Below are positions 3,301 through 30,004 of a stretch of 64,000 nt of DNA, in pieces. This DNA comes from a virus (taxonomy: Duplodnaviria; Caudoviricetes): IMG/VR virus record IMGVR_UViG_3300042691_031247. One strand, given 5' to 3'. Numbering within the stretch: the first letter of the stretch is position 1; every line of letters starts with the position of its first letter. The notes under the pieces were generated by a model, which was not told where the DNA came from, did not search any database, and saw nothing but the letters and a program-made list of their open reading frames with translations. Both the position numbers and the translations under genes were made by a program.

Positions 3301-5410
3301 CGTCTTCGTCCAGAATGCTTTTGCTGGGCTGGGGCTTGGCGTCTGGATATTTTAACAGCCGGCGCTTCTTCTTTGAAAGCGGTCGTTTCGGTGTGCTGGT
3401 GGTGAGCGTGAGCGGCTGAAACACGCTGCTTTTTTCCTGCGGCGCTTCTTTTGTTAACTCTCCGCGCCGGCGCTTGAGATACTTCTGTAACTCCTGCTCC
3501 TGATACGCTTCCAGCATGGTCTTTACTCTGTCCGACTTGGCCGGCGAGACTAACTTTGTCGGATCAATCGCCCAGTTGCGCAGCGCCCAGCCACGACGAG
3601 GTGTCGGTTTGGCCATGAACGGCCCACCATGACGCGCCTTGAAGCTCGCCCAGCGCTTGATCTGGCGCGTGTCTTCCTCGGGAATTCTGCGGCCAGAGTT
3701 ATAGTTCTGATACCACTCCAGCCAGCCCTTTGGGTCATGCTCAGTCACCCATTCAGGCTTCCATTCGCCCAAGCTGGCTAATCTCGGCCCTTCTTTCTCA
3801 TAAAGCGATTTATACACACCCATGCGATGCAGCTGGCCGGGCGTAAAGTCAGGCTGGAACTCAGGAAGCTCCGCGCTCTGCTTCTCTTGCTCGCGCTGCT
3901 TGCGGTATTTATCTCCCTCGTCTTTGAGTATCTTGCGGAAGATCTCATTGAGCTGCTCTTTCTCAGCGGTGAGGTGTTCGAGCACTTCGTCACCTGTACG
4001 CTCGCGCTTGTACCCCATGAGCTTGCCCAAGAAGCTCGGGTCTTGGCTGGCGCTTAGATATCTTTGGACTTGGACGTTCTTGAGTTCTTCAGGGAGATCT
4101 CTGTGCGAGTCAAAACGTAAGCCACGGCCACGAGCTTGCTGGCTGCGCGACTCATGCCAGTGCGGATCTAAGAGCTGGATGAGACTGGTGCCCTTAGTCG
4201 ACAAGCCCTCAGCGCCAGCAGGGCCAATTAAGAGCGCGCGCAGCTTGCCTGTGTTGTATGCGTCCACAGCGGCTTGGCGCGCCTTTGAGCTGACGCCGCC
4301 ATGGAAAAACGCATGCGGGATCTTGGCTTTCTCTAGGCCAGCCGCGTAGGGCGCCAAGCCAGAGTCAATAAAGTTGGAGTAGATAATCGCCTTCTTGCGC
4401 TTGTCTTCGCCCAGTGTTTTCTGCAGGTTCTGGAACGCTGTCTGGAGCTTGGCGCTCTGCTGAAAAGCTTTGCCGGGATCTTTGTCAGCACGGAACGGCT
4501 GTGTACTGAGACTTACTTGGCGCAGGCCCGTCAAGAAGCTATTTAACTTGGCCAGCTCGTCTTTACTTAGCGGAAACTCTTGGTCGAGCTTCCAGAGAAA
4601 TCCCGGCGGAATCTTCGTGCGGATAGCCTTCTGAATCTTGTCCTGCGCTGGCGATAACGGCACACGCACGACTTCTTCTTTGACGTCGACGCCTTCAGGA
4701 GTCTTGCTGGGCTGATAGTCAACTTTGCCCTGCAGTAACTGGCGTAGCTCTTGCTCGTTCTTGACGACTGGTTTGACGCCGGGCTTCACGCCACGCAGCC
4801 AGCCAAACAAACCCGGGCGCACAGTCTTGTAATCTATGTAGCGCTTTTCAAACTCTTCGGGCGTGATCTGTTTATTGTTCAGCATCGACAACAAGTTCGC
4901 CAAGTCCGTGGGCGAGTTTGTGATCGGCGAGCCTGTGAGCAGCATCAGCCGTTTGGCTTGGGCAGCAGCTTCAGCAGCGCCTGTCGAGCTTGCGCTGCCG
5001 GGATTCCGTAATCTATGCGCCTCGTCCATGATGAGTGTCTTAGGCGGCGTCTGGAACTTCTTGCCCAGCGCCAGCCCCGTGTAGCTCATGATCTCAGGAT
5101 TCGAGTTGCGCGTGAACTTCTTGACTTCTTTGTCGAAGTTTCCCCTGAGACTAGCCGGGACCACCACGCCATACTCTTCGCCGTCTTGTTCTTTGGCAGC
5201 TTCGGCGGCAGCGAGCGATGAGAGCGACTTGCCCGACCCTAAGCCGTGATAGACCAGCAATCTGGGGTCAGGGCCGGCAATGCGATCGGCGATGCGTTGC
5301 TGATGCTCTTGCAGCTGGATCTCGGGCAAAAGCTCAGCGATTTTGTGCCACAGCCCAGCCGGCAACGCAGATTTTTTCATCGGCTGGTCATCGTCGAGAA
5401 TGCTGTTCAT
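3278..5410 (-). CDS. SNF2-like SF2 helicase with an extra C-terminal domain
   Basis: Walker A HGLGSGKS, DEAH, LLTGSP, and motif VI QQARGRGLR; C-terminal DPKGWLEWY..Y..GRR...D.RQIKRW domain. Confidence 0.9.
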   Translation of the reverse strand: MNSILDDDQPMKKSALPAGLWHKIAELLPEIQLQEHQQRIADRIAGPDPRLLVYHGLGSGKSLSSLAAAEAAKEQDGEEYGVVVPASLRGNFDKEVKKFTRNSNPEIMSYTGLALGKKFQTPPKTLIMDEAHRLRNPGSASSTGAAEAAAQAKRLMLLTGSPITNSPTDLANLLSMLNNKQITPEEFEKRYIDYKTVRPGLFGWLRGVKPGVKPVVKNEQELRQLLQGKVDYQPSKTPEGVDVKEEVVRVPLSPAQDKIQKAIRTKIPPGFLWKLDQEFPLSKDELAKLNSFLTGLRQVSLSTQPFRADKDPGKAFQQSAKLQTAFQNLQKTLGEDKRKKAIIYSNFIDSGLAPYAAGLEKAKIPHAFFHGGVSSKARQAAVDAYNTGKLRALLIGPAGAEGLSTKGTSLIQLLDPHWHESRSQQARGRGLRFDSHRDLPEELKNVQVQRYLSASQDPSFLGKLMGYKRERTGDEVLEHLTAEKEQLNEIFRKILKDEGDKYRKQREQEKQSAELPEFQPDFTPGQLHRMGVYKSLYEKEGPRLASLGEWKPEWVTEHDPKGWLEWYQNYNSGRRIPEEDTRQIKRWASFKARHGGPFMAKPTPRRGWALRNWAIDPTKLVSPAKSDRVKTMLEAYQEQELQKYLKRRRGELTKEAPQEKSSVFQPLTLTTSTPKRPLSKKKRRLLKYPDAKPQPSKSILDEDDAADSAK

Positions 5411-9622: not shown

Positions 9623-10702
9623 TCAGCCGTTATTCCGGGTTTTCACCGCCATCTGCTCCCGCGCAGGCCACAACACCATCTGTTGCATTGTGTCCTCGTC
9701 GGTTGCGTCGCCGAGTAACTGCAGAGCTGTTACTGGACGCTGCGCAATGCTTTCTTTACGCTCGTCGGTCAAGCTGTCGCGCAGCACAGCCTTGAGCGCG
9801 TCATACCGGGGATACGTCACCCATCCTTCAGCTTTGTCCGGGTTGTACTTTTCGTACTTCCTGTGGACATAGTGATTGGTTTGCACCAGTCCGTTGCGTC
9901 TGGTGCGAATGGCGTCGTCATCTCCGACATGCGTCACAACAGTGTGTTCATGGGCTTTGGTGCCAACCACGTGCGCAAAGAACGGCACGATGGTTTCATA
10001 GCTCCGTAGCCCGAGAACCAGACTGTTGTAACTCTTTGGCAGTAGGTCGCAGGCGGCTCGGACCCGCTGTAACACGGGCCACTTAAAGAGCAGCTTAGGC
10101 GCCGACAGCCAGCCAAACAAGCTATTCAGTTTATTTACAACTGGAGCTTGATTGACAGTGACAGCCCATGAATCACCCATGGCAGAGATCACGCCCACCA
10201 TGCCCGCCACGCCTACAGATGTATAAGCTTGGCGACCACGATGAAAGCGAAAGATCCGCGTGTGCCGGCCAGTACTGCGCGGCACCACCCAGTCCATGTT
10301 ACGGACCAGCACGGGGGACTTCTCAACATCAAAGCTGATACTGGAGCACCCACAACCGTACATCTCGGCTAAAGATGTGAAGTCGTAGATGAGGTTTCCC
10401 AGCATGAGCTTCCCCACAGGAACGTCGGCGTGCCGGGCAATGCACGCTAGTTCCTGTGTGTAATCTTCGCCAAACATGTCCACGATTTGGCGAAGTAACC
10501 AGCCGCCACCATTGGCCAGCGTATGCACAGCCGCCATGAGCGGACCGGGCAGGCTAGGCGCCACTGTCTCCTCGATTTCTGTTTCCACATCAGCGAGGAG
10601 CGACTGAATAGCATCTCCGTTTTGGATAGCAAAATCAGTCCAGCGCTCGTCAGCGGGGGCGTCCAGATCGATGTCCCAGACCTTGCCCGTGTAGAGCTTC
10701 AT
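9623..10702 (-). CDS. acid ceramidase / NAAA-like Ntn hydrolase
   Basis: N-terminal DIDLDAPADERW, nucleophile context GC-C119-SSI, RNMDW and VQTNH. Confidence 0.8.
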   Translation of the reverse strand: MKLYTGKVWDIDLDAPADERWTDFAIQNGDAIQSLLADVETEIEETVAPSLPGPLMAAVHTLANGGGWLLRQIVDMFGEDYTQELACIARHADVPVGKLMLGNLIYDFTSLAEMYGCGCSSISFDVEKSPVLVRNMDWVVPRSTGRHTRIFRFHRGRQAYTSVGVAGMVGVISAMGDSWAVTVNQAPVVNKLNSLFGWLSAPKLLFKWPVLQRVRAACDLLPKSYNSLVLGLRSYETIVPFFAHVVGTKAHEHTVVTHVGDDDAIRTRRNGLVQTNHYVHRKYEKYNPDKAEGWVTYPRYDALKAVLRDSLTDERKESIAQRPVTALQLLGDATDEDTMQQMVLWPAREQMAVKTRNNG

Positions 10703-17621: not shown

Positions 17622-17966
17622 TGGAGGCGGCGGGAGTCGAACCCGCGTCCAGAGATATCTCCAGAAAGAACGTCTACGTGTGTAGGCAGTTGTTGTTTAC
17701 ACTCCTGCCAAAGTTAGCCGATTATCGGCGTCAGGTGGGCTACCACCATCTTGCCCTTTCTCGCCGGGCCAGATCAGCCGATTATCGGCGTCAACCTGAT
17801 TGGGCAATAAGGCTCAGGTCGCCTCACCCACTGGCCTATTAACTAGGCAGCGAGGGCCGGAGCAAAAGCGCCAGCTAGAAACGTAATCGGCTTTTAACGT
17901 GGCCAACCGATCAACCACGACACGCAGTCCTAACCTTCCTTATCCTGTCGAAACCAGTACGCCCCC
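17622..17966 (-). ncRNA. ssrA: tmRNA; tag (A)GAFAPALAA
   Basis: 5' GGGGGCG...TTCGAC, 3' GGTTCGACTCCCGCCGCCTCCA with G3-U70, PK1, and tag ORF at 17843-17872. Confidence 0.95.
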
Positions 17967-18240: not shown

Positions 18241-18462
18241 TCAGTCTACCTTCTCGACGTTTAGCGCGATAAGAAAACCACACATCTGGGCAAATGTGAT
18301 CAGCTGCTTCTCTTTGAGTTTGAAGAAATCTGCAAAGTGAGTAAACAGATCACAAGGCGACAGATCTGTCGGGTTTTGCGTTTCACGCAATTTAGATATC
18401 AATTCGGCTGCTCGTTCTAGAGTCATCTTGCTATTCCTTCGTGTAAAGATAACAGAACTCAT
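18241..18462 (-). CDS. small hypothetical protein
   Basis: fills the gap between tRNAs; start could be the internal MTLERA after AAGGA. Confidence 0.55.
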   Translation of the reverse strand: MSSVIFTRRNSKMTLERAAELISKLRETQNPTDLSPCDLFTHFADFFKLKEKQLITFAQMCGFLIALNVEKVD

Positions 18463-18487
18463 TGGGCCGCCAAGGAGTCGAATCTTG
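18463..18487 (-). pseudogene. tRNA 3'-half remnant (T arm plus acceptor strand)
   Basis: CAAGA-TTCGACT-CCTTG-GCGGCCC-A with no matching 5' half nearby. Confidence 0.5.
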
Positions 18488-18536
18488 CGTTTTTGTTGTC
18501 TTCCAACTACACTGCGTTATTCCAAACGGAGGTTTT

Positions 18537-19031
18537 ATGCGCTGCGTCAATTGCAACATAGAGACAACAAATCCGCGTTTTTGTGGTCGCTCGTGTTCGG
18601 TTAGTTACAACAATCGCCGCGCGCCAAAAAGAAAAAAACAAACACAAGCGTGTCCAAATTGTTTAACCCAATTTTTTAAACGCGTAAACAGCAATCAAAC
18701 GTTCTGCAGCGTTCAATGCCGCAAAACAAATTACTGCGCAAAAATTACTGCGGCTGGTCGTTTTGATATTAACGGCCAACCCAGCAGCGTAACTGTGCGC
18801 AAGTTTTTAATTGTTACGTCCGGCAATATCTGCACTGTTTGCGGTCAAACCGGTAACAACTGGCGCGGTCAGCCATTGACGCTAATTGTTGACCACATGG
18901 ACGGAAACGCCCGCAACTGGAAAATTGAAAACATTCGACTTGTGTGTCCAAATTGCGACAGCCAGCTACCCACGTTTAAAGGTAGAAACAAAGGTAAAAG
19001 CACACGCAAATACACAATCATTCAACGCTAG
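18537..19031 (+). CDS. HNH homing-endonuclease-like protein with N-terminal Zn fingers
   Basis: CTVCG...LIVDHMDGN..N..IENIRLVCPNCDSQ; GGAGG before ATG at 18537; antisense to the tRNA array. Confidence 0.9.
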   Translation: MRCVNCNIETTNPRFCGRSCSVSYNNRRAPKRKKQTQACPNCLTQFFKRVNSNQTFCSVQCRKTNYCAKITAAGRFDINGQPSSVTVRKFLIVTSGNICTVCGQTGNNWRGQPLTLIVDHMDGNARNWKIENIRLVCPNCDSQLPTFKGRNKGKSTRKYTIIQR

Positions 19032-19132
19032 TACGCCCGCAGGGAATCGAACCCCGACCTACAGGTAATCAGCCTGTATCCTTTCGGACCGAGAATATAA
19101 GTCTCGTGTGCTAACCGTTACACCACGGGCGC
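19032..19132 (-). tRNA. tRNA-Ile(UAU), 101 nt, with a second anticodon-like arm (GAU) in the variable region
   Basis: canonical acceptor, D and T arms; arm 1 CGAGA-CTTATAT-TCTCG; extra GTCC-GAAA-GGAT and ACAGG-CTGATTA-CCTGT. Confidence 0.8.
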
Positions 19133-19202
19133 ATATCTCGCGTGGGCGGGGCGCCAGCAGCTTGGGCTACTGCCAGCGCCCCGCCGTCAGCGAGTCTACG
19201 CT

Positions 19203-19565
19203 TCAGCGGTAGCGTTTGCACGCGTACCACCGGCCATCCCTGCCACGCGCGACCCCTTGGTCTACAACCGCTCTGCCGCTATTGCTATAGCAGCAGTTTC
19301 CCAGCGCCTGCTCGGGCGTTGAGCCCATGCCGACGCCTTCGTAACCGGCGTTGCCGCCGTGATGTCCCATGCGGCCATTGCTAGCCTGCAGCTCAGCTAC
19401 GCCCTGTGCCGTAGACGTATGCCCGGCGTAAGAACTAGCGTAGGAATAGGACTTCACTGGAACCTGCGCCTGAGACGGCGTGTAAGACCGACGGTGCCGC
19501 GGGGCAGCATGCGCAACGCTGACCAGCGAAAGAGCGACGGCTACACACATGAGAAAACGGAACAT
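19203..19565 (-). CDS. secreted small Cys-containing protein (planctomycete-type)
   Basis: signal peptide; EGVGMG.T...A..NCC...QGVA.G.DGRWYACKRY; GGAGG RBS. Confidence 0.75.
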   Translation of the reverse strand: MFRFLMCVAVALSLVSVAHAAPRHRRSYTPSQAQVPVKSYSYASSYAGHTSTAQGVAELQASNGRMGHHGGNAGYEGVGMGSTPEQALGNCCYSNSGRAVVDQGVARGRDGRWYACKRYR

Positions 19566-19632
19566 AACGATCCTCCGTGACCCCGCTGCTGGTGTGCGCA
19601 GCGTGAAAACAAACAAGCCCCACACCGGGCAG

Positions 19633-29959: not shown

Positions 29960-30004
29960 AAAAAAAGACCCGCCGAGTGAGCATCGTTGAGAGGCCCGGC
30001 GGGT
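29960..30004 (-). terminator. intrinsic terminator ending the fibre operon
   Basis: acccgccg/cggcgggt stem followed by T7 on the minus strand. Confidence 0.7.

Follow-up and report, generated by a model that had tools for sequence, protein, structure and literature searches.

A phage tRNA-Ile(UAU) with a second, GAU-bearing arm that may present the host IleRS with its anticodon determinant

A 101-nt gene in the tRNA cluster of a phage combines within a single tRNA-Ile two arms of the anticodon type, the first bearing the triplet UAU and the second the triplet GAU, with a short GAAA hairpin placed between them. The gene lies in a stretch of 64,000 nucleotides, hereafter called the window, which belongs to a phage genome of 198,101 bp that is 97% complete according to CheckV. 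From its conservation and structure we conclude that it is very probably a real and selected AUA tRNA, and that it belongs to a family of phage UAU tRNAs that carry an additional GAU arm. More tentatively, and somewhat short of being convinced, we propose that it is an AUA decoder of a family in which the GAU arm gives the host IleRS its determinant.

The gene is read on the minus strand, so that position p of the tRNA corresponds to window coordinate 19133 minus p, and it comprises six helices in the 5′-3′ order acceptor, D arm, arm 1, GAAA hairpin, arm 2 and T arm (Table 1). Its core has the composition of a canonical cloverleaf, with an acceptor stem of 7 bp followed by U8, a D arm of normal build (A14, GG in its loop), A26, a 5-bp/7-nt arm with U33 and a purine at position 37, a T loop of the UUCRA type, and A73 as the discriminator. 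CCA is not encoded. In arm 1 the anticodon UAU occupies 19099..19097 and is accompanied by C32, U33 and A37; together with A73 this is the equipment of an AUA-type tRNA-Ile(UAU). Hairpin 1 abuts arm 1 on one side and arm 2 on the other without any linker, and the stem of arm 2, whose GAU is located at 19070..19068, measures 5 bp, or 6 bp if a U–A pair is counted. With 101 nt and two extra hairpins the molecule lies outside the canonical range of 72–95 nt with at most one extra arm. The Rfam tRNA model RF00005 matches all 101 nt with 53.9 bits (gathering score 29; window-wide E 8.3e-9), whereby the alignment spans the full model from 1 to 71, assigns the role of the anticodon arm to arm 1 and places a 30-nt insertion ahead of it at the T arm. 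In folding by minimum free energy the six-helix structure likewise comes out as the optimum (−39.3 kcal/mol, z −2.5). The original prediction, which had been made from the letters alone, had parsed the gene into a UAU and a GAU arm: this parse is exact to the letter. ARAGORN missed the gene in its default run and, with introns allowed, called an Ile(GAU) with a 30-nt “intron”. When either of the two 29-nt blocks was removed in silico, the program returned Ile(UAU) or Ile(GAU), which bears out the earlier claim that each deletion leaves a normal tRNA. A repeated mobile hairpin was excluded, as the 29-nt block and each of its parts are single-copy in the 198-kb genome.

Table 1. Features of the two-arm tRNA gene and its surroundings (window coordinates).
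Feature	Position	Strand	Description and basis
140-aa ORF	19203..19625	−	upstream of the tRNA; synteny anchor
GC-rich 16-bp hairpin	19145..19185	−	invariant 9-nt loop UAGCCCAAG; between the 140-aa ORF and the tRNA
101-nt tRNA-Ile gene	19032..19132	−	six helices; Rfam RF00005, fold, covariation in alignment A2
Arm 1	19090..19106	−	5-bp stem CGAGA/UCUCG, loop CUUAUAU; aligned as anticodon arm by Rfam
Hairpin 1 (GAAA tetraloop)	19078..19089	−	GUCC-GAAA-GGAU; fold, covariation
Arm 2	19061..19077	−	stem ACAGG/CCUGU, loop CUGAUUA; covariation, invariant GAU in family
Linker, arm 2 to T stem	19057..19060	−	AGGU; like a class I variable loop in size and sequence
T arm	19040..19056	−	5 bp, loop UUCGAUU; Rfam alignment, covariation
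HNH endonuclease ORF	18462..19031	+	PHROG HNH families, E 3.7e-21; convergent with the tRNA
Remnant, 3′ half of a UAU tRNA-like gene	18463..18490	−	blastn 94% to L016 10452–10786, starting inside the gene

An assembly chimera, which the prediction had named as a possible undoing of the two-arm reading, is excluded: contigs from three independent runs of three studies bridge 19032–19132 without a difference and without a joint. The stretch is present in 20 runs of 14 studies, most of them from freshwater. The gene recurs identically in the IMG/VR contig 3300032308_002010 and with a single changed nucleotide in 3300012000_000039; while the neighbouring ORF is 62% identical between phages, the tRNA differs at only one of its 101 nt. 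A comparison of the tRNA cluster region with 50,697 GenBank phage records gave generic tRNA matches only, without close relatives, and one metatranscriptome contained contigs of a relative’s tmRNA region only, none of which covers the 101-nt gene.

Whereas our first, narrow sequence patterns returned only near-identical copies and chance matches, a pattern composed of UAU, GAAA and GAU retrieved L222 in IMG/VR as well as 17 metagenome matches, 13 of which are true tRNAs. A pattern without the GAU requirement added L242, L244 and L257, and all true members still carry GAU. L244, which is short, stems from a Lysobacterales MAG, and L257 is likewise a contig of a MAG and has a gene of the window type; for bacteria, one pattern scan yielded two short MAG contigs only. 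The two-hairpin form recurs in at least 12 lineages beyond the window. In an alignment of 14 sequences (A2) 94% of the cells are paired, as against 64% after shuffling and 37–47% in slid controls; 24 of the 30 pairs have changed on both sides, and all six helices covary, including hairpin 1 with three of four pairs and arm 2 with four of five. Because GAAA and GAU were fixed by the pattern in the first set of A2, the evidence from that set is confined to the stems and the tRNA context. The prediction had looked to metagenomes for homologues with covarying second arms, and this is where they were found. A73 is the discriminator in 13 of the 14 members. L233 is a phage of the same lineage, and its two-arm gene differs from that of the window at seven positions; its hairpin 1 shows a compensated change from U–A to C–G. 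In L233 and L234 the loop of arm 2 reads CUGAUAA, which is the exact loop of bacterial tRNA-Ile(GAU). Throughout the window clade, arm 1, hairpin 1 and arm 2 abut and form a four-way junction with the D stem. Hairpin 1 also occurs alone, without the GAU arm, in L026 (1894–1973), L137, L159 and L160. These genes encode tRNA-Ile(UAU) of about 80 nt whose variable region is a UCC-GAAA-GG(G) hairpin, and the one in L026 stands beside an HNH homologue. Since the GAAA hairpin is found by itself in four UAU tRNAs, we consider it a module of its own.

The GAU arm extends far beyond this subfamily. We scanned IMG/VR for UAU tRNAs by the loop CUUAUAA and an excessive distance from it to the T loop, leaving the intervening sequence unconstrained, and obtained at least 119 loci. 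Among the matches listed there are 72 distinct tRNA-Ile(UAU) genes with a variable region of at least 13 nt; 68 of these 72 form a hairpin with three or more base pairs and a loop of 7 nt, and in 65 of the 72 it is a hairpin of 3–5 bp whose 7-nt loop is centred on an invariant GAU. By the same measure, the same loci hold no GAU-centred hairpin in any of 38 Leu, 57 Ser and 15 Tyr tRNAs or in any of 13 other long class I tRNAs, and the Ile(GAU) and CAU tRNAs in the matches listed are of ordinary length. The 65 GAU-arm sequences listed fall into 31 clusters at 80% identity and display 22 stem variants. Their loop consensus is CAGAUUA: the first base is C or U, the position equivalent to 33 is A in 58, U in five and C in two members, the position equivalent to 37 is U in 44, A in ten, C in six and G in five, and the last base is A in 45, G in 13 and U in seven. 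With its UAU arm, its 5-bp arm 2 closed by the 7-nt loop CUGAUUA and its linker AGGU, the window gene fits the pattern of this family. Consequently, the U at position 37 of arm 2, to which the prediction had rightly drawn attention as a blemish, represents the family norm (44 of the 65 members listed), and the possibility it had raised against itself, namely that the second loop varies freely among homologues, did not materialize: GAU is invariant and the stems covary. In about 730 kb of phage tRNA clusters, which had been chosen by homologues of the HNH protein or of the 140-aa ORF irrespective of anticodons, hairpins with a GAU loop ahead of the T arm are of two sorts: some are the anticodon arms of ordinary Ile(GAU) tRNAs, and the others are the second arms of UAU tRNAs. 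The reversed order, a GAU arm followed by UAU, is absent from the loci examined, which were mostly picked by patterns that place UAU first. GenBank contributes one-hairpin members from S-SKS1 (HQ633071/NC_020851, 178484–178593) and S-SRM01 (MW015081/NC_070963, 32943–33033); both are isolated Synechococcus phages (cyanophages), and the family members are unannotated in the records. A related loop form is seen in L044 (5813–5886), where a 74-nt tRNA has CCGAUUA, with a base other than U at position 33 and U at position 37, as its sole anticodon loop, the same form as in the GAU arms of the family; on this contig many class I isotypes (Asn, Gln, Met, Ile-GAU) have long extra arms. The prediction had known of no precedent for such a tRNA. 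This holds for the searchable literature, in which we found no account of a tRNA-Ile with a GAU-bearing extra arm (subscription-only papers lay outside the search), and it does not hold for nature, where a large phage family exists.

The spacing of the GAU arm sets it apart from the extra arms of other tRNAs. In the family members listed the arm has a stem of 4–5 bp and a 7-nt loop, is mostly preceded by 2 nt and is followed by a linker of 5 nt in 44 and of 6 nt in 19 cases (4 nt in the window gene), whereas the Leu, Ser and Tyr arms in the same loci mostly have loops of 3–4 nt and 0–3 nt before the T stem. As a variable loop of normal size links the GAU arm to the T arm, we interpret it as a tandem arm of the anticodon type and not as a class II arm. 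An assignment of the gene to class II (Leu, Ser, Tyr or Sec) was accordingly rejected, as a 7-nt loop with a 4–6-nt linker stands against a 3–5-nt loop with 0–3 nt. We also rejected an architecture like that of allo-tRNA or tRNA-Sec with 8/4 or 9/3 stems: the single-sequence fold hints at 8/4, but alignment A2 does not support it. In A2 the first T-stem pair covaries (CG in nine, GC in five sequences) and the acceptor has seven covarying pairs.

To assign the decoding function to one of the two arms, we compared the locus with its relatives, using the 140-aa ORF as an anchor. This ORF has no match among Pfam or PHROG families, and 15 related loci with 54–95% identity are found in viral contigs. 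Between it and the tRNA lies the 16-bp hairpin, which is kept in all relatives (L008–L016, around 10430–10470), is not followed by a run of U, and shows compensatory stem changes in L010 and L011 (alignment A1): may it be a processing site or a protein-binding site? The syntenic position behind it is occupied by a series of different genes. In L011 it holds a canonical 73-nt tRNA(CAU) that has the same acceptor stem as the window gene and whose body is close to E. coli tRNA-Ile2. In L013–L015 it holds a 77-nt tRNA-Ile(UAU) without a GAU arm, and in L008, L010 and L016 a degenerate, tRNA-like gene of 72 nt with the loop CUUAUUA. Genes of the latter type (L008, about 10481–10552; L016, 10409–10480) are devoid of a proper D arm, and the L016 type reaches only 20 bits, on the tRNA-Sec model. 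The loop CUUAUUA, and hence U at position 37, is also present in the tRNA-Ile(UAU) genes beside HNH genes in L024, L025, L027 and L028; in nearly all tRNAs this position is a purine. Given that the relatives hold a CAU tRNA, a UAU tRNA or a UAU tRNA-like gene at this site, we regard it as an AUA-reader locus. Moreover, the anticodon stem CGAGU/ACUCG of the L008 type matches the stem of arm 1 in the window. The remaining tRNAs of the phage (Thr-UGU, Leu-UAG, Leu-UAA, Glu-UUC, Val-UAC, Lys-UUU, Gln-UUG, Asn-GUU and one CAU) mostly carry U34 and serve codons that end in A, a set into which UAU fits and GAU does not. AUA accounts for 8% of the Ile codons, with 211 occurrences in 157 long ORFs. On the strength of the AUA-reader locus, the stem match with the L008 type and the mostly U34 tRNA set, we conclude from sequence comparison that arm 1 is the putative decoding arm and orthologous to the anticodon arm of the relatives.

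Several observations were made alongside. L233 contains both kinds of gene, a two-arm gene of 101 nt (4122–4222, 4 nt after a tRNA-Val) and a plain 75-nt tRNA-Ile(UAU) (5198–5272) at the syntenic site after the homologue of the 140-aa ORF. The single CAU tRNA of the phage (78 nt, genome positions 174071–174148, outside the window) could be a Met, an initiator or an Ile2 tRNA; it has a mismatch at the top of the acceptor stem (C opposite U in the ARAGORN drawing) and no G–C run in the anticodon stem. The window further encodes a tmRNA (17622–17966, minus strand; 129 bits in Rfam), for which ARAGORN gives a tag of 25 residues, compared with GAYAPALAA or GAHAPALAA in the near-identical genes of L009 and L013; the long tag is probably the result of a mis-set resume codon. 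An abiF RNA is matched in Rfam at 29968–30003 on the minus strand (44.6 against a gathering score of 37). Matches to the Pistol ribozyme (58 bits; gathering score 34.5) sit just upstream of tRNA-Lys in relatives (L013 and L014, 7664–7734; L015, 5273–5343), and there are none in the window.

On its 3′ side the tRNA meets an HNH endonuclease gene, the stop codon of which (19029–19031) directly abuts the end of the tRNA, while its true start may lie downstream of 18462. With Pfam HNH_3 the ORF scores 22.9 bits, just below the cut-off of 24.8. All eight of its closest homologues (49–54% identity) have a convergent tRNA-Ile(UAU) within 5 nt, and tRNA genes are present in 57 of 80 HNH homologue loci. 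At the far end of the HNH gene lies the remnant listed in Table 1, which comprises the variable loop, the T arm (GGUUCGA changed to GAUUCGA), the 3′ acceptor strand and A73 of a gene whose type is intact in L008, L010 and L016. Identity between the window and L008 stands at 97% as far as 19139, a point seven bases short of the tRNA, and their homology resumes at 18491. L009 has the same cassette, there in an L010-like backbone, whereas the backbone of the window is L016-like; each has its own type of remnant. The tRNA and the HNH gene thus form a cassette, which has displaced the 5′ part of the UAU tRNA-like gene that resided at this site; the pattern is that of a putative homing-type cassette with its own tRNA allele, for which cleavage by the HNH enzyme is predicted. 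In L012 the two-arm tRNA occurs without the HNH gene and without the remnant. Because most family members have no HNH neighbour, the two-arm design is older than its association with the endonuclease, and the cassette shows how such a tRNA spreads between phage genomes.

A possible reason why an AUA tRNA might profit from a second anticodon-type arm lies in the properties of IleRS. For the E. coli enzyme, a UAU variant is a substrate about 360-fold poorer than the lysidine form, and E. coli ribosomes cannot tell AUA from AUG with an unmodified UAU tRNA (PMC3575796). The transfer step depends on anticodon recognition (a 1000-fold effect), and in S. aureus it is by way of U33 that IleRS1 reads U36 (PMC13752280). 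The anticodon and A73 are strong IleRS determinants, as is t6A37 for the bacterial enzyme (PMC9976931). The phage genome encodes no IleRS, TilS, RtcB, RNA ligase or splicing endonuclease. In the mechanism that we propose, arm 1 would read the rare Ile codon AUA with its UAU, and the GAU arm would supply the determinant of G34, A35 and U36 that the host IleRS needs and that UAU does not offer. Charging with Ile would thereby be achieved without lysidine and without a phage enzyme. For this purpose arm 2 would reach the anticodon-binding domain of IleRS by stacking under the D stem: as four helices meet without linkers at the GAAA hairpin junction, either arm could stack there, and such an alternative stacking must be assumed because a side arm is off the site of the anticodon-binding domain. 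This junction, together with the variable loop of normal size behind arm 2, makes such a route conceivable. Taken further, this leads to a two-state adaptor, a single molecule that would hold its identity in one anticodon arm and its decoding in the other. With the GAU arm under the D stem, IleRS would read GAU and charge the tRNA; with the UAU arm in this place, the ribosome would read AUA. We consider the full two-state adaptor unlikely; that the GAU arm acts through IleRS is a possibility to which we give serious, if not quite even, weight. Besides the need for this alternative stacking, two observations speak against a reading by IleRS: most loops in the family members listed have A at position 33 and U at position 37, in contrast to the t6A37 and the U33 that count for the bacterial enzymes named above, and relatives make do with arm-less UAU tRNAs (L013–L015, L024–L031) or, as L233, use both kinds. 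Among the four roles that the prediction had put forward (a switchable tRNA, a spliceable tRNA, a decoy and an IleRS-recruiting appendage), the appendage fits the evidence best, and the switch is possible in the form of a stacking switch at the helical junction.

The alternative with the greatest weight is that the GAU arm serves some other partner than IleRS as a handle, with the tRNA still reading AUA: this partner might be an enzyme whose modification of U34 prevents the tRNA from reading AUG, or a factor of the phage, and the arm might also make a contact within the tRNA itself. Several of the above findings would find a natural place here, namely the departure of the consensus CAGAUUA from a true Ile anticodon loop at positions 33 and 37, the AUUA that the GAU-arm loops share with the CUUAUUA of arm-less UAU tRNAs, the 74-nt tRNA of L044 with CCGAUUA as its sole anticodon loop, and the confusion of AUA with AUG by the unmodified UAU tRNA described above. 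What such a handle leaves unaccounted for is that the invariant part is exactly G-A-U, i.e., the IleRS determinant, and that the arm is tied to the very Ile anticodon that IleRS accepts poorly; in addition, no candidate gene for a partner was found. We therefore judge it somewhat unlikely.

A dual decoder, in which both loops would act as ribosomal anticodons for AUA and for AUC/AUU by switching at the L tip, is improbable. It would agree with the canonical tRNA-Ile that results from either 29-nt deletion, with the U at position 33 of arm 2 in the window clade and the CUGAUAA of L233 and L234, and with the direct abutment of arm 1, hairpin 1 and arm 2; however, the A at position 33 in 58 of the 65 family members listed would break the U-turn, the extra helices would add bulk in the ribosomal A site, and no need for it is evident, because hosts have abundant tRNA-Ile(GAU). 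Equally slim are the chances that the arm serves as a decoy or shield, be it against an anticodon nuclease of the host or against some other defence directed at tRNAs. Phages are known to overcome defences that cleave tRNAs with tRNAs of their own, and the gene resides in a phage tRNA cluster together with a tmRNA, but a decoy would not have to be fused to a tRNA, and this role, which the prediction had also considered, does not explain why the arm is confined to UAU tRNAs. Moreover, we know of no nuclease that targets tRNA-Ile(GAU).

Still less probable is a non-functional by-product, be it a chimera of two tRNA-Ile genes or a leftover of HNH recombination in a decaying gene. The fast turnover of the locus with its degenerate versions (L016 type, 20 bits), the tRNA remnant adjoining the HNH gene, and the resemblance of arm 2, AGGUC and T arm to the 3′ two-thirds of a tRNA-Ile(GAU) might suggest such an origin, but every helix covaries across at least 13 lineages with GAU invariant, the tRNA differs at one nucleotide in 101 where its neighbours are 62% identical, and most members of the family have no HNH neighbour. 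Least credible of all is an intron, i.e., the removal of the extra 29–30 nt to give a 72-nt tRNA and thus the spliceable role of the prediction: either block is cleanly removable and ARAGORN reports a 30-nt intron, but this call is an artefact that relies on a hybrid stem with a mismatch, the phage encodes neither RtcB nor an RNA ligase nor a splicing endonuclease (the genome, 97% complete, lacks PF01974, PF01139 and PF09414), the conserved and covarying hairpins would lie inside the intron and outside the anticodon loop, and the block is too short for a self-splicing intron, as bacterial tRNA introns are group I introns of more than 200 nt within the anticodon loop.

If the GAU arm is indeed read by IleRS, the roles of an anticodon would be split, with one arm addressed to the enzyme and the other to the ribosome. 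In every tRNA known to us that has an anticodon-reading synthetase, a single triplet determines both the amino acid and the codon, and we know of no tRNA in which the two are re-coupled by two anticodon arms. Such a split would constitute a natural route to codon reassignment or rescue without any change in a protein, would provide orthogonal tRNAs with a design that already exists, and would account for the way in which phages furnish a tRNA for AUA without lysidine. Because these genes are overlooked or mislabelled by standard tRNA finders, AUA decoding is undercounted in phage tRNA sets and in analyses of codon usage. New in this work are the subfamily with two hairpins, in which both extra stems covary, the linker statistics that separate the GAU arm from class II arms, the allele series of CAU, plain UAU and UAU with a GAU arm at one syntenic locus, and the HNH cassette with its tRNA remnant.

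With regard to known systems, the cassette resembles the type represented by SegB of phage T4, a free-standing homing endonuclease in a phage tRNA cluster: in both, an endonuclease stands beside tRNAs, is polymorphic in its presence or absence, and is associated with co-conversion of the flanking tRNA. They differ in that the window enzyme is of the HNH and SegB of the GIY-YIG type, and the two-arm tRNA also occurs without HNH (L012, L233). The decoding problem itself is shared with the TilS-independent tRNA-Ile2(UAU) of Mycoplasma mobile (Taniguchi et al. 2013, PMC3575796), where AUA is likewise read by an unmodified-type UAU that an ordinary IleRS accepts poorly. However, M. mobile has its fix in the enzyme (Arg865 of IleRS) and a tRNA with a normal cloverleaf (PMC3575796), whereas the phage tRNA faces the enzyme of its host and carries the extra GAU arm on the tRNA. 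An extra helix between the anticodon and T arms is likewise found in nematode nev-tRNA-Ile(UAU) (PMC3333845) and in bacterial allo-tRNA(UAU) (PMC5389517). Their arms are identity elements of the Leu/Ser type, and nev-tRNAs are charged with leucine (PMC3333845, PMC5389517); furthermore, allo-tRNAs have 8/4 or 9/3 acceptor/T stems (PMC5389517) in place of the 7/5 of the phage tRNA. Unlike these arms, the GAU arm of the phage tRNA has a 7-nt loop with an invariant GAU, which is then followed by a linker of 4–6 nt. A further parallel is offered by anticodon-arm mimics in mRNA leaders such as the operator of E. coli thrS, in which a hairpin that copies an anticodon loop, away from the usual anticodon site of a tRNA, is read by the anticodon-binding domain of the cognate synthetase (PMC9976931): while mimics of the thrS type regulate the translation of the enzyme’s own mRNA (PMC9976931), the mimic of the phage lies inside the tRNA and would serve its charging.
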